Shown here: in pieces, positions 1,565 through 6,372 of the stretch
How positions within the stretch are numbered: the first letter of the stretch is position 1
How the letters are laid out: every line of letters starts with the position of its first letter
Assembly (NCBI GenBank): GCA_017942105.1
Contig: JAGAVE010000025.1
Location: forward strand, 1-32,000
DNA from: Clostridia bacterium
GTDB taxonomy: Bacteria > Bacillota > Clostridia > Oscillospirales > Acutalibacteraceae
Length of the DNA stretch: 32,000 nucleotides
Direction of reading: 5' to 3'
Made by a program: the position numbers and the translations under genes
The notes under the pieces: model-generated
Told to the model about the DNA's origin: nothing
Seen by the model: the letters and a program-made list of their open reading frames with translations, nothing else
The model's database searches: none

Positions 1565-1724
1565 AAATTCCGCCTATACCGTTTTAGGGTAATTAAGGAC
1601 CGAATGCATTTGCGTCTGCGGTAGGTAAAGCACAGAAACAGATATAGCTTTGCAGACAGCTTTTCTGTGTGCAACCGTGTACCTTTATTAAAAGGTGTTT
1701 AACATTTTCGGTCGCTTGATTATA

Positions 1725-1753
1725 CGGGTACGGGCACAAAGTGTCCGTACCCG
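1725..1753 (+). promoter_or_regulatory. Strong 13-bp stem-loop (cgggtacgggcac-aaa-gtgtccgtacccg) followed by attctttt, 8 nt upstream of the RT ribosome-binding site. It could be a terminator or attenuator, or part of a leader RNA.
   Basis: The pairing was checked base by base and contains one G-U. The stem-loop overlaps the GTG at 1741 that the ORF track uses as the start. Confidence 0.6.
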
Positions 1754-1773
1754 ATTCTTTTAAGGTGATAAAT

Positions 1774-3388: not shown

Positions 3389-5169
3389 TGGGTAAATTTG
3401 TTATAGAATGTCCGTCATGCGGTCGATATGCGGAAGCATCGACCGGCTTCTTTGCAAAGAAAAAGATTGACTGTGCTTGCGGATATGTAATCAATGTGAA
3501 AACTGATAAACTTTCATCGAAGGTTTGTCCGCATTGCGGAAATACCGTGGTATTTGATCAGAGCAAGGGCGAGGATGCAAAATGTCCTGTTTGTCACGAG
3601 AAAATCAATACTCGTGAAAGTATGGCTGCTCTTTCTGAGTTTACTTGTCCGTCTTGTAGTTGCAAACTGTCTGCAGATAAGAGTGCACATACATACTCCT
3701 GCCCGCTTTGTGATACGGTTATTAACGTTCAAGAGCGAATTGCTAAAGAAGATATTAAAAACCAAGGTCTTGCAAGCGTTGTAAAATACGAGGGCGGAAA
3801 TGATACCTTCGTATGGAAGCATCCGATTGAAGATTTCAATCTTGGTTCGCAACTTATTGTTCATGAATCCCAAGAGGCTATCTTCTTCCGTGATGGTAAA
3901 GCACTTGATTTATTTGGAGCCGGTAGATACACTCTTGCAACGCAAAACATTCCCCTTCTTGAAAACTTATACAAGCTTCCAACTAACACTACCGAGGTTT
4001 TCCACTCCGAAGTATATTTCGTAAATCTCACCACTCAAATGGGTATCAAGTGGGGCACTGACAGTAAAGTTCGCTTGTTTGATCCCGCTTCCGGTTTACA
4101 TATCGAAATTGGCGCTTGCGGTAATTTCAGCCTTCGTGTTTGCGATTCGAGAAAGCTTCTTGTAAAGCTGGTTGGGACAGCTTCCGAGTTCAAACAGAAC
4201 GAAATAATGGGCGATCCTTACAGCATCGCTTCTGTTGTTGGTAAATTTAAGGCTCTTGTTATGAACAAGGTAAAAGCCAACATTGCCCGTATTATCAAAG
4301 AAAATAACATTAATATACTTGAAATTGATGAGTATATTGACGTTGTTTCCGACAAACTGCGTGTTGCTATCAACGAAGTGTTGGGTGAATACGGCCTTGT
4401 TATGCCGGAGTTCTTCGTAACTTCGATTATGACACCAGACGATGATCCCAATTTCCGCCGCCTCAAGCAGCAGTTTGCTGATAAGGCTCTTCGTGTGCGT
4501 GAAGAGGAGATCCGCAAGGCAGAAGCGGAAGCGGCACAAGGAAGAAAAATCCTTGAAGCACAAACTGAAGCTCAGCTTAAAATGGTCGGTGCTCAAGGTG
4601 AGGCTGAAGCTCTCAAAATCAAAGCGCAGGCTGAAGCCGAGGCATATAAAGCACAAGCTTTTGCGGAAGCAGAAGAAATGCGTGCAAAAGGCTATACTTA
4701 TCAACAAGAAACCGCTCGTATGGTTGGCATGGAAGCAATGCAGAATGGCATTACAGGTAACGGATCCGGCGGCTCAGGCTCTGCACTTGGTGACATCGCA
4801 GGTCTTGGCGTAACCCTTGGTGCAATGGGCGGCGTAATCGGAATGACGAAAGATGCTCTCAATCCCATTATGCAAACATCGGCTGATATTGGTAGCGGTG
4901 TTGTAGCTTCTGTCGGTGATACTTGGAATTGCGCCTGCGGCAAAACTAATATTTCTTCTAAATTCTGCCCCGAATGCGGTGCTGCGAAACCCGAAGCGAA
5001 AGCCGGTTGGGATTGTGCCTGTGGGCAGAAAAATATCACCTCTAAATTCTGTCCGGAATGTGGAGCGAAAAAGCCTGAAGTTCCTGCAACTTGGAATTGC
5101 CCCGAATGTGGAAAAAGCGGAATCGAAACAAAGTTTTGCCCTGAGTGCGGACACAAGAGGGAGGGATAA
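3388..5169 (+). CDS. Multi-Zn-ribbon SPFH/Band-7 protein (YdjI / COG4260-like core). It has three N-terminal CxxC...CxxC ribbons, the SPFH domain, an Ala/Glu-rich coiled-coil, a Gly-rich linker, and three C-terminal Zn-ribbon repeats.
   Basis: The core VVKYEGGNDTFVWKHP...GSQLIVHESQEAIFFRDGKALDLFGAGRYTL...EVYFVN...KWGT matches the YdjI-type SPFH family from memory. EA-rich flotillin-like repeats are present. The CPxCG ribbons are readable. The RBS is TAGGAGGGA. Confidence 0.85.
   Translation: MGKFVIECPSCGRYAEASTGFFAKKKIDCACGYVINVKTDKLSSKVCPHCGNTVVFDQSKGEDAKCPVCHEKINTRESMAALSEFTCPSCSCKLSADKSAHTYSCPLCDTVINVQERIAKEDIKNQGLASVVKYEGGNDTFVWKHPIEDFNLGSQLIVHESQEAIFFRDGKALDLFGAGRYTLATQNIPLLENLYKLPTNTTEVFHSEVYFVNLTTQMGIKWGTDSKVRLFDPASGLHIEIGACGNFSLRVCDSRKLLVKLVGTASEFKQNEIMGDPYSIASVVGKFKALVMNKVKANIARIIKENNINILEIDEYIDVVSDKLRVAINEVLGEYGLVMPEFFVTSIMTPDDDPNFRRLKQQFADKALRVREEEIRKAEAEAAQGRKILEAQTEAQLKMVGAQGEAEALKIKAQAEAEAYKAQAFAEAEEMRAKGYTYQQETARMVGMEAMQNGITGNGSGGSGSALGDIAGLGVTLGAMGGVIGMTKDALNPIMQTSADIGSGVVASVGDTWNCACGKTNISSKFCPECGAAKPEAKAGWDCACGQKNITSKFCPECGAKKPEVPATWNCPECGKSGIETKFCPECGHKREG
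4921..5166 (+). repeat. Three tandem copies of an 84-nt (28-codon) unit, each encoding one Zn-ribbon of the form W(N/D)C(A/P)(C/E)CG...(S/T)KFCPECG. The third copy is 78 nt.
   Basis: Units start at 4921, 5005 and 5089. Nucleotide-level similarity is visible (acttggaattgc... / ggttgggattgt... / acttggaattgc...). Confidence 0.85.
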
Positions 5170-5882
5170 TGATGAATATGCAGTTGAATAAGAAATCAAA
5201 ATCAGTTATTACTGTATATGCAATCGTTTTATTCGTTTATGTCCTTGCTTTTTTGATTATTCCCTTTAATAAAACCGCCGCCAGCTGGATTTCCTTCGTT
5301 TTCACAATTATTGCTATCGCAGGAAGCTTGTTTGTATGTGGTTATGCATTTAACGCAAAACAGACTCTCGTTAGCAAAATATACGGATACCCGATTTTTA
5401 GAGTTGGCGCTGTATATGCCATTGCTCAGTTGTCCATTGGCGTTGTTATTTGTGCTATAAGCGCAGTTATAGCAGTTCCCTATTGGGTTGCTTTGCTTGT
5501 TTCTGTCATTCTTTTGGGTGCTGCAGCAATCGGTGTTATTATTACGGATAACACACGTGATTTAGTTGAAGAAGTGGATGAAAGCGTTAATGTTGATACT
5601 AAAAATGTTACACGCTTTCAAATCTATATTGCCGGTATTGTTGATATCTGTGAAAATACAGAAGTAAAAGCAGATCTTGAAAAGTTGAACGAACTTTTTA
5701 GGTTTAGCGATCCTGTAACCAATGATGAAACAAGAGAAATTGAAGAATCCATAAAGAGCATGTTGACCGAGTTGAAAATGCTTGTTGTTGATGGTAGTAC
5801 AGATGATATCAAAGTGATGATTAAAAAGATTACAAATGCGCTCAACGAAAGAAATCGCATTTGTAAGGCAACAAAACAATAA
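5169..5882 (+). CDS. Integral membrane protein with about 4 TM helices and a C-terminal cytoplasmic helical domain, function unknown
   Basis: There are four hydrophobic stretches in aa 10-130. The start was moved to ATG 5169, which overlaps the upstream TAA (TAATG) with GAGGGAGGG just upstream. Confidence 0.8.
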   Translation: MMNMQLNKKSKSVITVYAIVLFVYVLAFLIIPFNKTAASWISFVFTIIAIAGSLFVCGYAFNAKQTLVSKIYGYPIFRVGAVYAIAQLSIGVVICAISAVIAVPYWVALLVSVILLGAAAIGVIITDNTRDLVEEVDESVNVDTKNVTRFQIYIAGIVDICENTEVKADLEKLNELFRFSDPVTNDETREIEESIKSMLTELKMLVVDGSTDDIKVMIKKITNALNERNRICKATKQ

Positions 5883-6372
5883 TTTGTGCTACACAGACAA
5901 CGCCGAGCCAAGCCTGAAAACAGGAAGGTGTAACGACTGGACACGGAGCATCCCAAGTGGATGAAGGCACAGTCTGAACTTGCAGGTAACTGTAAGAGCC
6001 GTACAGAAATGATACGACCTCCGCAATAGCGGTGTAACAAAATTGGGAATGTCTTATCAGAAATTTTCTCACAATAATGGGAGATTTGCTATAGGCGGTA
6101 CACACCGCCCTTGGCGGTCTCGCAAACTACTTGGCTATCACGGGGAATCCCCCTACAAATAGCACCTTTATTATCACTATTGTCATTTTTGCGCTGCTTT
6201 TTTGCGTATAGCAGTTAAAAAAGAAACGCAGAGATATAAAGAAAAAAAGAGTAAGTAAACGAAAGGTGAAATATCGCCCACCATATAGCAATATGTGGTT
6301 ACGCACTCCGTAAATTCGGCGGAACTCTGTATGCGAAAATCGAGGACACTTTATTGTGTTCTCGATTTTTTG
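5883..6372 (+). ncRNA. Candidate structured non-coding RNA or long structured 3' UTR of the RT operon, class unknown
   Basis: No credible ORF is present. Many local hairpins were verified by eye: 5913-5924, nested 5935-5974, a GNRA-capped 7-bp stem at 5979-5996, 6021-6032, 6094-6109, nested 6134-6163, and 6278-6298. The region ends in an intrinsic terminator. Confidence 0.45.
6337..6372 (+). terminator. Rho-independent terminator
   Basis: atcgaggacac-tttatt-gtgttctcgat (11 bp, one G-U) followed by TTTTT. Confidence 0.8.

Follow-up and report, generated by a model that had tools for sequence, protein, structure and literature searches.

We describe a locus at the start of a 32,000-nucleotide (nt) stretch of DNA from a Clostridia bacterium (assembly GCA_017942105.1, contig JAGAVE010000025.1, positions 1 to 32,000 of the forward strand; hereafter the window). 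By its sequence, the locus brings together two modules. Module A is a UG26 retro-element, made up of an RT-5 non-coding RNA (ncRNA), a reverse transcriptase (RT) and an upstream COG2852-like partner domain. Module B comprises a TPR–TIR protein whose C-terminus is hypervariable, a Zn-ribbon protein that is optional, a YdjI-like SPFH protein and a membrane protein with about four transmembrane (TM) segments. The UG26 RT, the RT-5 RNA and the partner domain are already known; of most interest is the apparently undescribed TIR–SPFH–4TM module with a UG26 unit grafted on. We read the locus as a composite operon at the cargo end of an integrated mobile element, in which the two modules are joined and work as one functional system, a reading that in our judgment has about an even chance of being right. 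From the genomic context we infer a role in defense and a functional coupling of modules A and B. A first-pass annotation, made from the sequence of the window alone, had proposed an undescribed RT-based defense system with the Zn-ribbon, SPFH and membrane proteins as its effector or sensor. It is half right: this is a defense-type RT locus with an unusual SPFH module, but the RT type and the partner domain are known ones.

Five co-directional genes and two structured non-coding elements make up the region. They are given below together with the smaller features between and beyond them (aa, amino acids; ORF, open reading frame; HMM, hidden Markov model; RBS, ribosome-binding site).

2-1564 (+): TIR–COG2852-like gene, 3' part (521 codons); the frame is open from base 2 and the gene is cut at the window start
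1598-1713 (+): RT-5 ncRNA; an outer stem (1598-1604/1707-1713) encloses the Rfam motif (RF03026 match at 1610-1710)
1725-1753 (+): terminator-like hairpin (13 bp, 9 of them G-C) that ends in a U-rich tail and separates RT-5 from the RBS of the RT
1774-2982 (+): UG26 reverse transcriptase, 402 aa, with YSDD (RT_UG26 HMM, RVT_1); the ORF is open from GTG 1741
2999-3388 (+): Zn-ribbon protein, 129 aa (CKFC...CNEC), an optional member of the TIR–SPFH–TM module
3388-5169 (+): soluble SPFH protein (Band_7_1, YdjI-like), 593 aa, from the PF13421 match (E 1.6e-37) and the map of CxxC motifs
5169-5882 (+): membrane protein, 237 aa, with about four TM segments and a helical cytoplasmic tail of ~110 aa by hydropathy; the ORF is open from 5145
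5893-6042 (+): conserved structured RNA-like element, recognized by covariation, with its own -10-like box (AATAAT, 5878-5883)
6336-6372 (+): hairpin followed by a T-run, terminator-like by eye; kept in the related loci L001 and L088 and missed by the consensus scanner
~6705-6771 (+): tRNA 3' fragment (T-arm, acceptor 3' strand, CCA), from a partial tRNA model match and reading of the sequence

The RT is, on sequence criteria, a stand-alone class 2 UG/Abi RT of the UG26 group that is accompanied by an ncRNA. The PADLOC model RT_UG26 (PDLC03764) covers it almost completely (E 2.7e-166, 551 bits, model positions 2-397 of 398), while the runners-up, the generic RT and UG17 models of PADLOC, reach 115 and 107 bits. 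RVT_1 is the sole Pfam match (E 9e-22), no additional fused domain is found in its 402-413 aa, and the YSDD box (Y231, S232, D233, D234) is invariant across 30 homologues; the first-pass description of a UG/Abi-type RT of about 400 aa that has a YSDD box and no fused domain, and that goes with an ncRNA, thus stands. The start codon is most likely TTG 1774 (402 aa), to judge from an RBS (AAGGTGA) at 1762-1768. Homologues are 402-404 aa long, and the alternative GTG at 1741 falls within the terminator-like hairpin. The survey of UG/Abi RTs lists UG26 as a class 2 group with no additional known domain fused to the RT (PMC9226505). A COG2852 (YcjD/Vsr-like) protein adjoins nine of its 35 members (Mestre et al. 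2022, PMC9226505), and its defense prediction is given as "inconclusive" (PMC9226505). The RT had been expected to lie outside the known clades with described partners. This expectation failed, as the RT is UG26 according to PADLOC and the described COG2852 partner is present in the gene upstream.

A classical retroelement, in the form of a group II intron, a retron or a diversity-generating retroelement (DGR), is a very improbable source of the RT. The similarity to such elements is weak: 102 bits against a cutoff of 300 for the group II intron maturase model TIGR04416, and 73 bits against a cutoff of 235 for the NCBIfam retron RT models. All of the NCBIfam RT families (group II intron, Drt2-5, retron) stay far under their cutoffs. 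No close structure is present in the PDB, where group-II-intron-like RTs come out best (E 1e-13 to 1e-14), followed by Drt2 (5e-8). The complementary flanking ends of the RT-5 RNA are somewhat like the a1/a2 repeats of retrons, but the RNA itself is RT-5 and not a known msr/msd family. Searched at the gathering threshold and at E<=1, positions 1-8000 yield no RNA family of group II introns, in agreement with the first-pass view that the RT does not belong to a group II intron, and they contain no direct repeat longer than 28 nt of the kind expected for the template and variable repeats of a DGR. Together with the 551 bits of the UG26 model against at most 115 for any other RT model, these results led us to reject a group II intron and a DGR, and to set aside a retron as very improbable.

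The ncRNA is recognized by the Rfam model RF03026 (RT-5) at 1610-1710, with 66.5 bits against a gathering score of 45.7, and the match ends 64 nt before the RT start. RT-5 is one of the motifs RT-1 to RT-19 that were described adjacent to RT genes (Weinberg et al. 2017, PMC5737381). A covariance model of our own making, built from 35 upstream regions, scores 95 bits at the window site and finds an RT-5-like RNA on the RT strand in all of the 84 RT loci searched, directly 5' of the RT except in L045 and L081. The same model finds no RT-5 in the SPFH loci that have no RT. The helices covary in our alignments, and the outer closing stem (1598-1604/1707-1713) has compensatory changes between loci. 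In addition, the 5' tail GUCUGC (1614-1619) pairs with the hairpin loop GCAGAC (1652-1657) to form a pseudoknot. Its six pairs covary in an unbiased covariance-model alignment of 84 sequences (A8): GC 54/AU 24; CG 69/UA 11; CG 81; UA 76/CG 3/UG 2; GC 80/AU 1; CG 65/UG 14. Alignment A3 was left out of this evidence, since its sequences had been selected for perfect complementarity and its use would be circular. The hairpin at 1725-1753, the sequence of which is kept in close relatives, probably marks where the ncRNA ends or acts as an attenuator.

Stop trinucleotides are depleted in RT-5. In 55 loci (window 1608-1717 included) there are 147 stops in the cDNA sense and 181 in the RNA sense, against 273 and 257 in mononucleotide shuffles, and the cDNA-sense strand is stop-free in 50 of the 55 copies, against about 25 in shuffles. 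A never-ending ORF of the DRT2 kind was considered and rejected, as the position of the open frame relative to the conserved loop varies (each of the three frames is used, by 18, 18 and 14 copies). The depletion is probably an effect of composition or structure and not evidence of a gene.

What accompanies UG26 RTs in general was surveyed in four loci from reference genomes, in 80 metagenome loci (RT identity 42-58%) and in further contigs with specific RT homologues. A COG2852-like protein, of a median ~180 aa, lies upstream in 33 of the 66 metagenome loci that have at least 800 nt of upstream sequence. Members of the 4-TM, Zn-ribbon and TIR families are missing from all 80 metagenome loci. 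Where at least 2 kb of downstream sequence is available (42 metagenome loci), one locus, L010, has an SPFH gene behind the RT. The conserved unit to emerge from this survey is therefore RT-5 plus RT, with a COG2852-like partner in about half of the loci. The L010 case was set aside as independent support for an RT–SPFH link: its SPFH protein is a generic one of 454 aa with Band_7_1, a MatE transporter comes next, and there is no 4-TM, TIR or Zn-ribbon gene. Chance adjacency is plausible there, given that more than 8000 SPFH homologues exist.

The picture changes among RTs at least 61% identical to that of the window. A TIR-fused partner together with an SPFH–TM pair is found in the window itself, L001 (RT 90% identical), L099 (82%), L088 (81%) and L002 (72%), and the pairings of P0021 with P0137 and of P0024 with P0221 suggest two more such cases. 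In L004 an insertion sequence transposase sits after the RT, which makes this locus uninformative on downstream neighbors.

These surveys bear on the original proposal that the Zn-ribbon, SPFH and 4-TM proteins are a dedicated effector or sensor of a new RT defense system, with nothing else needed. In its favor are the coupling of the genes in one operon, the order RT–Zn-ribbon–SPFH–TM in L001 and L099 and RT–SPFH–TM in L002, and a literature search that found no RT system with an SPFH partner; the terms "SPFH" and "band 7" are absent from the main text of the UG/Abi survey (PMC9226505), in line with the first-pass annotation. The conserved RT–SPFH linkage that the proposal supposed is, however, not general. 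It is seen in one of the 42 distant loci, where a generic SPFH protein and MatE come without a TM partner, and other relatives at 61-73% have the RT alone or with a TIR gene only, RT plus RT-5 standing alone in four of them (in one, L102, the contig ends just after the RT). Every RT–SPFH locus of the close clade has a TIR–COG2852 gene upstream, and in six loci the SPFH module is found with a TIR gene and no RT. We thus consider a dedicated SPFH partner of the RT a poor prospect; the regular partner of the SPFH module is a TPR–TIR protein, as described below.

The upstream gene (2-1564) was missed in the first-pass annotation because the window edge cuts it. The PADLOC model RTasCOG2852 matches residues 333-429 of its product (E 1.2e-6), and the middle region has coiled-coil-type, LmuB/SMC-like matches. 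The orthologue in L001 is 894 aa long and 90% identical, and has a TIR_2 domain at 158-280 (E 1.5e-10). Full-length orthologues have an N-terminal Zn ribbon, TPR, TIR, TPR again, a coiled-coil-like region and, at the C-terminus, the COG2852-like domain. The TIR domain of the window protein lies outside the window and is known from these orthologues. E239 of the motif WVKNEW is invariant in all 13 related TIR proteins, and in an alignment with TcpB and AbTir it coincides with their WxxxE motif, the glutamate of which we take to be catalytic. The TIR domain is thus likely to be active as an NADase, to judge from its sequence. The COG2852-like domain can be aligned to the small proteins encoded upstream of other UG26 RTs. 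No acidic, Lys or His residue is invariant in this alignment, in which near-invariance is limited to one Asn, one Tyr, one Val and one Arg. The domain is thus probably a binding domain, nuclease-dead in appearance, rather than an active nuclease.

It is this protein that ties the two modules together. TIR proteins linked to SPFH genes and those linked to RTs share ~400 conserved N-terminal residues and have unrelated C-termini (coiled-coil-like plus COG2852-like, RCC1 repeats, DUF6273 and others). In tblastn, the RT-linked TIR protein is, over its first ~400 aa, ~52-56% identical to the N-termini of those SPFH-linked TIR proteins from RT-less loci that were tested. The partner domain of the RT thus fills the variable C-terminal slot of a TIR protein, so that one protein belongs to both modules and is, by its sequence, the hinge between the UG26 unit and the SPFH module. 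The match of the TIR protein to the ThsB1 HMM is weak (E 6e-4), and PADLOC matches for the TIR proteins are marginal.

A different fusion is seen in L058 (7103-9823, +; RT 48% identical), where a protein of 906 aa joins the COG2852-like domain to a double Zn ribbon and seven Sel1 repeats. The partner domain has thus been grafted onto repeat proteins more than once.

Of the remaining three proteins, the SPFH protein is the best defined. Besides Band_7_1 (PF13421, E 1.6e-37) it has C-terminal Zn-ribbon matches in Pfam, no TM segment, and five N-terminal and four C-terminal CxxC motifs. The motifs are consistent with three ribbons at each end, as the first-pass annotation had it. From the N-terminus, the layout is three Zn ribbons, the SPFH core, an Ala/Glu-rich helix, a Gly-rich linker and three further Zn ribbons. 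More than 8000 homologues were scored, and all 120 clusters among the matches listed are at least 69% identical; only ~30 RT clusters reach 70% identity, far fewer close relatives than the SPFH protein has. The 237-aa protein had been described as having four TM segments. Three are strong in the hydropathy scan (13-31, 43-61 and 107-125), and a weaker fourth (~76-101) was read by eye; a polar tail of ~110 aa follows. It has no significant family match in Pfam, PADLOC, NCBIfam or PHROGs, and a tetraspanin match is sub-threshold.

The 129-aa protein has a single N-terminal Zn ribbon (CKFC...CNEC) and no TM segment, and has no match in Pfam, PADLOC or NCBIfam. A homologue of 142 aa (45% identity, E 7e-36) lies between TIR-RCC1 and SPFH in L104, a locus without an RT. 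The Zn-ribbon protein thus belongs to the SPFH module and not to the RT. Among the loci checked by profile HMM, the family is confined to the window, L001, L088, L099 and L104. Its identity to the window protein in L001/L088/L099/L104 is 63/56/82/45%, against 96/90/98/94% for SPFH, and this fast divergence may reflect diversifying selection.

The contexts of the SPFH gene were sampled at 74-98% identity and checked with local profile HMMs for the TIR N-terminus, TM, Zn-ribbon, SPFH and RT. They are given here in gene order, with the lengths of the TIR proteins and a few others in brackets (aa).

L085: recombinase – TIR (693) – SPFH – TM – PRTase-CE – TnpV; no RT
L091: prophage holin/amidase – TIR (896) – SPFH – TM – 206-aa protein – serine recombinases – restriction-modification genes; no RT
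L104: TIR-RCC1 (1283) – 142-aa protein – SPFH – TM – 185-aa protein; no RT
L106: recombinase – TIR (631) – SPFH – TM – DUF6273 (665) – TnpV; no RT
L109: recombinase – SPFH – TM – 194-aa protein – TIR (863) – TIR (950), with an Abi_2 gene nearby; no RT
L110: helix-turn-helix protein – SPFH – TM – TIR (700) – TIR (714); no RT
L088: TIR (895) – RT – Zn-ribbon – TIR-RCC1 (1107) – SPFH – TM – TnpV
L002: TIR (876) – RT – SPFH – TM – TIR (508)
Window, L001 and L099: TIR (855-894) – RT – Zn-ribbon – SPFH – TM

In all 11 distinct loci SPFH is immediately followed by the TM gene, with one or more TPR–TIR genes adjacent (for the window, this rests on the orthologues), and six of the 11 have no RT. The regular partner of the SPFH module is thus a TPR–TIR protein, not the RT. 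A TM homologue lies immediately 3' of SPFH in nearly every SPFH locus that has downstream sequence, distant viral and plasmid copies included. Since the Zn-ribbon, SPFH and TM genes recur together in the absence of an RT, they form a module. In three loci an SPFH–TM pair has two TPR–TIR paralogues with different C-termini, in tandem in L109 (10191-15741) and L110 (9667-14282) and on the two sides in L002 (2945-5575 and 9558-11084).

Several of the loci have a defense-type context. L091 lies at the end of a prophage, after the holin and amidase genes and beside a restriction-modification system. L085 and L106 occupy a cargo slot that resembles those of integrative and conjugative elements (ICEs), between a tyrosine recombinase and TnpV, together with PIN_12 and PRTase-CE. 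The Abi_2 gene near L109 and the TIR paralogues with different C-termini in L109, L110, L002 and L088 fit such a context as well. Operon variants share this slot of related mobile elements, which runs from a tyrosine recombinase of ~281 aa to TnpV and is filled with varying cargo (PRTase-CE, DUF6273, PIN_12, DUF2971); the slot is a cargo hotspot. The positions noted for it are 3735-4580/10840-11217 in L085, 3906-4748/11650-12027 in L106, 608-1453 in L099, 5961-6806 in L001 and 10078-10458 in L088.

Beyond the close loci, distant SPFH–TM pairs (37-43% identity) are present in IMG/VR contigs and on a Butyrivibrio plasmid, some with a TIR gene and some without. A scan of viral contigs with the single SPFH protein gave nothing, and an alignment-based scan gave seven loci; the corresponding TIR scan gave only two contigs, both of them already among the SPFH loci, and a UG26 RT alignment scan of IMG/VR found no UG26. 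Phage records in GenBank have fragmentary SPFH matches only, and the Butyrivibrio pair is the one distant SPFH–TM pair found on plasmids. Full-text searches that combined SPFH, Band 7, stomatin or flotillin with phage defense found no described system, and the TIR–SPFH–4TM module is apparently undescribed, being absent from PADLOC 2.0, PHROGs and the searchable literature.

The distribution just described could also fit a non-immune role, in which Zn-ribbon, SPFH and 4-TM form a YdjI-type module for membrane maintenance or stress on phages and ICEs (membrane protection, superinfection exclusion or holin control), with TIR and RT genes as merely frequent neighbors. The sole characterized relative, YdjI/SamI, acts in membrane-stress signaling, the distant pairs without TIR fit such a role, and no defense database matches the proteins. 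Against this stand the TPR–TIR adjacency in 11 of 11 close loci, and the hypervariable C-termini and tandem paralogues of the TIR proteins, a pattern of immune sensors and effectors. The Zn-ribbon protein, moreover, diverges much faster than SPFH (56-63% against 90-96% identity in L088 and L001). Finally, no PspA-family match was found among the five operon proteins, and no pspA gene is present in the gene tables of the related loci. We regard the non-immune explanation as unlikely.

The junctions within the operon are tight. The stop codon of the RT is followed by AGGAGG and then ATG 2999, and TAATG stop/start overlaps join Zn-ribbon to SPFH (3386-3390) and SPFH to TM (5167-5171), exactly as the first-pass annotation had described. 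The second overlap places the start of the membrane protein at ATG 5169, which gives 237 aa, the same length as in homologues. The terminator scan found no strong terminator between the RT and the Zn-ribbon–SPFH–TM genes, and the gap to the Zn-ribbon gene holds an RBS only. L001 and L099, at ~86-89% DNA identity, have the five genes in the same order. Homology to L001 stops at 6371, and the hairpin plus T-run at 6336-6372 is likely to be the end of the transcription unit.

Whether the two modules form one system is the central question. The one-system reading draws on the TIR hinge, on the tight coupling of the operon and on the three diverged loci (window, L001 and L099) in which the RT-linked TIR gene is the only TIR gene beside SPFH–TM. 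A number of observations weigh against it. In L117 (RT 66%) the TIR–COG2852 fusion, RT-5 and RT are followed by phage-like genes, and none of the SPFH, TM and Zn-ribbon genes is present in the 6.5 kb upstream or the 8 kb downstream; the UG26 unit plus TIR can thus exist without the SPFH module, unless this is supplied in trans. No TIR/COG2852 partner is found beside RT and RT-5 in L115 (73%), L003 (67%) and L103 (61%), nor upstream of the RT in L102 (70%), the contig of which stops just past the RT. A second, separate TIR gene lies beside SPFH–TM in L088 and L002. The RT-less L085 has SPFH and TM proteins 91% and 82% identical to those of the window, the RT-bearing L002 86% and 57%; the similarity does not follow the presence of the RT, so that the modules recombine. 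The SPFH, TM and Zn-ribbon proteins have no match in PADLOC, which recognizes the TIR protein only weakly, nor in NCBIfam or PHROGs, and no ligand-sensing domain was identified in them, and our literature search found no experiment on the function of UG26.

Much of this would be accounted for if two independent systems were standing side by side in the cargo hotspot: UG26 with its fused TIR effector, and a TIR–SPFH–TM(–Zn-ribbon) system that has lost its own TIR gene in this lineage or uses one encoded elsewhere, the spacing reflecting co-transcription only. L117, the extra TIR genes of L088 and L002, the six RT-less loci, the incongruent SPFH/TM similarity and a recombinase–TnpV slot whose cargo differs between loci all point this way. 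The arrangement is harder to square with the RT-linked TIR being the only one beside SPFH–TM in the window, L001 and L099, when all 11 close SPFH loci have a TIR neighbor; with the N-terminus of that TIR protein, which belongs to the same family as the SPFH-linked ones; and with the RBS-only gap, the overlapping codons and the missing strong terminator. Two separate systems are, in our estimate, a possibility to be reckoned with, well short of an even chance.

If the modules do work as one system, a course of events can be sketched by analogy with better known systems. The RT, with RT-5 RNA as primer or template, would form an RT–RNA complex, perhaps with cDNA, as in DRT2 and DRT9. The COG2852-like partner domain would bind this complex. 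Phage infection would perturb the complex and switch on the fused TIR NADase, by analogy with TIR-linked retrons. The TIR output, whether loss of NAD+ or a signal derived from ADP-ribose, or else direct recruitment, would then act through a membrane complex of SPFH, 4-TM and Zn-ribbon proteins, somewhat as in Thoeris. In this complex the 4-TM protein may anchor the soluble SPFH scaffold, as YdjH anchors YdjI. The outcome would be growth arrest or membrane failure of the infected cell. A more specific, and tentative, proposal is that TPR–TIR-X, (Zn-ribbon), SPFH and 4-TM make up an undescribed Thoeris-like anti-phage system of the mobile elements of gut Clostridia, in which interchangeable and sometimes multiple TIR sensors signal to an SPFH scaffold and a 4-TM membrane effector; the UG26 RT and RT-5 would be wired in as an infection sensor by the fusion of the partner domain to TIR. 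We consider this less likely than not.

The structured DNA that the first-pass annotation had noted on both sides of the operon is RT-5 upstream and, downstream, an element of ~150 nt directly after the TM stop codon (5893-6042). The latter is 93-94% identical in L001 (14157-14305) and L088 (9502-9650), against 77-86% (DNA) for the flanking genes. An exact 24-mer of it occurs in 20 IMG/VR contigs (copies L118-L137), where the copies are found in regions of lysogeny control, surrounded by genes for XRE/cI-like and LexA-like repressors, antirepressors and integrases. A -10 box usually precedes the copies. Nineteen copies fold to a common multi-stem structure with 36 pairs, 16 of them with compensatory changes, and the junction sequences are almost invariant. 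Rfam 15 has no family for the element at E<=0.1 in six viral loci. A match to Intron_gpI at 5783-5996 (24.9 bits against a gathering score of 50) was not reproduced in the six viral copies and was dismissed as chance. The element is absent from L099, L085, L104 and L106 and, since several versions of the operon do without it, is not part of the system. It is apparently a candidate undescribed RNA family, widespread and strongly covarying. Short ORFs of 37-84 aa follow the element in the window (6049-6162, +), in L126 (6119-6373) and in L118, L119, L120, L125 and L132. Several of the viral ones end in ...EVN(H/Y)RP(A/T)....(V)CTP, and the window copy (MSYQKF...GGTHRPW...) looks degenerate; the peptides tested have no match in PHROGs.

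Farther right is the boundary of the island. The first-pass annotation had placed the operon at the cargo end of a tRNA-integrated element, and the tRNA 3' fragment fits a distal boundary; an intact tRNA to go with it was not found in the window by ARAGORN. The partial tRNA model match (6691-6760) scores 21.6 bits, under the gathering score, and a hairpin follows the fragment. The fragment is probably an attR-side remnant that marks the island boundary, with the integrase end outside the window. To the right of it are ordinary chromosomal-type genes: DUF1349, a methyltransferase-like DNA-binding protein, and a ZTP riboswitch with pfl. The riboswitch (ZMP/ZTP, 9299-9379, +, 61.6 bits) precedes a gene for a pyruvate formate-lyase-like glycyl-radical enzyme (9391-11667, +), the classic pfl arrangement. 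At 6919-6981 (+) a 21-nt unit, CCSGYAATCGTTRAATTATWG, occurs three times in tandem, and a promoter-like site (6979-7007) and a lipoprotein-like gene (7022-7786) come immediately downstream; the repeat may be an operator array.

The locus gives UG26 a testable context in this lineage: a defined ncRNA, an apparently nuclease-dead partner domain, and a fused TIR domain with an NADase read-out. It also brings out a recurrent module of three or four genes, TIR–SPFH–4-TM(–Zn-ribbon), which is carried by prophages and ICE-like elements in Clostridia of the gut and rumen. We know of no role of SPFH proteins in phage defense. A link from TIR to SPFH, if true, would be a new effector principle, and the Thoeris-like reading would, if true, give a bacterial SPFH protein its first immune role and UG26 its first functional context. 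More generally, the locus shows modules recombining: when the domain in its sensor slot is exchanged, a TIR protein can come to connect a retro-element with another set of effectors.

It remains to set the locus beside systems that are known. In the PspA–YdjGHI (SamGHI) membrane-stress system of Bacillus subtilis, membrane partners anchor YdjI, a soluble SPFH protein whose C-terminus carries a Zn finger (PMC8581546, PMC11237479); YdjH has a TPM domain, and YdjG combines an NTF2-like domain with two Zn ribbons and a TM segment (PMC11237479). The window SPFH protein is similarly a soluble Band_7_1 protein with a low-complexity stretch and C-terminal Zn ribbons, next to a potential membrane anchor, but differs from YdjI by its three extra N-terminal Zn ribbons. 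Its neighbors are less alike: the 4-TM protein has no TPM domain, and the 129-aa protein, with a single Zn ribbon, lacks a TM segment as well as any family match. The comparison with YdjGHI made in the first-pass annotation thus holds for the architecture of the SPFH protein, and not for the other two proteins or for pspA. The window module, moreover, is found on mobile elements next to TIR genes.

With Thoeris the locus shares the arrangement of one or several TIR proteins, with divergent sensor parts, beside a constant non-TIR partner, and also the weak ThsB1 match. The multiple TIR paralogues of some SPFH–TM pairs recall the multiple ThsB genes of Thoeris loci. However, the neighbors have no ThsA-type domain (SIR2/SLOG or Macro), the constant partner is SPFH plus 4-TM, and PADLOC does not call Thoeris. 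The TIR-linked retron and RT systems (for example NCBIfam NF042941, "TIR domain-containing anti-phage reverse transcriptase") similarly have an RT, an ncRNA and a TIR domain with a conserved catalytic Glu, and would share a logic in which a retro-element stands guard and TIR is the effector. In the window, TIR is on the partner protein and not fused to the RT, the UG26 RT scores 18 bits against a cutoff of 600, and the RNA is not one shown to be of the msr/msd type.

DRT2 (UG2) and DRT9 (UG28), the class 2 UG/Abi systems that have been characterized, have RTs of the same class that stand alone behind a structured upstream ncRNA, and some UG26 loci are RNA plus RT only, like the single-gene DRT2. 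The RTs of DRT2 and DRT9 copy their own ncRNA into cDNA products that mediate immunity. UG26 is another RT group with another RNA: RT-5 is without a consistent stop-free frame that would make a Neo-like gene and has no evident homopolymer template, and UG26 has a protein partner in about half of its loci.

The known components themselves complete the comparison. The window RNA matches the RT-5 (RF03026) consensus in sequence and structure and sits directly 5' of the RT, with nothing essential different; to the secondary structure line of Rfam we add the outer stem and the 6-bp pseudoknot, as well as the terminator-like hairpin before the RT. The RT conforms to UG26 in its full-length HMM match, in its ~400 aa without a fused domain, and in the COG2852-like partner upstream on the same strand. 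It differs from most other UG26 loci in that the partner domain, elsewhere a free protein of a median ~180 aa, is the C-terminus of a Zn-ribbon/TPR/TIR/coiled-coil-like protein of ~855-894 aa, and in that the operon runs on into the Zn-ribbon, SPFH and 4-TM genes.

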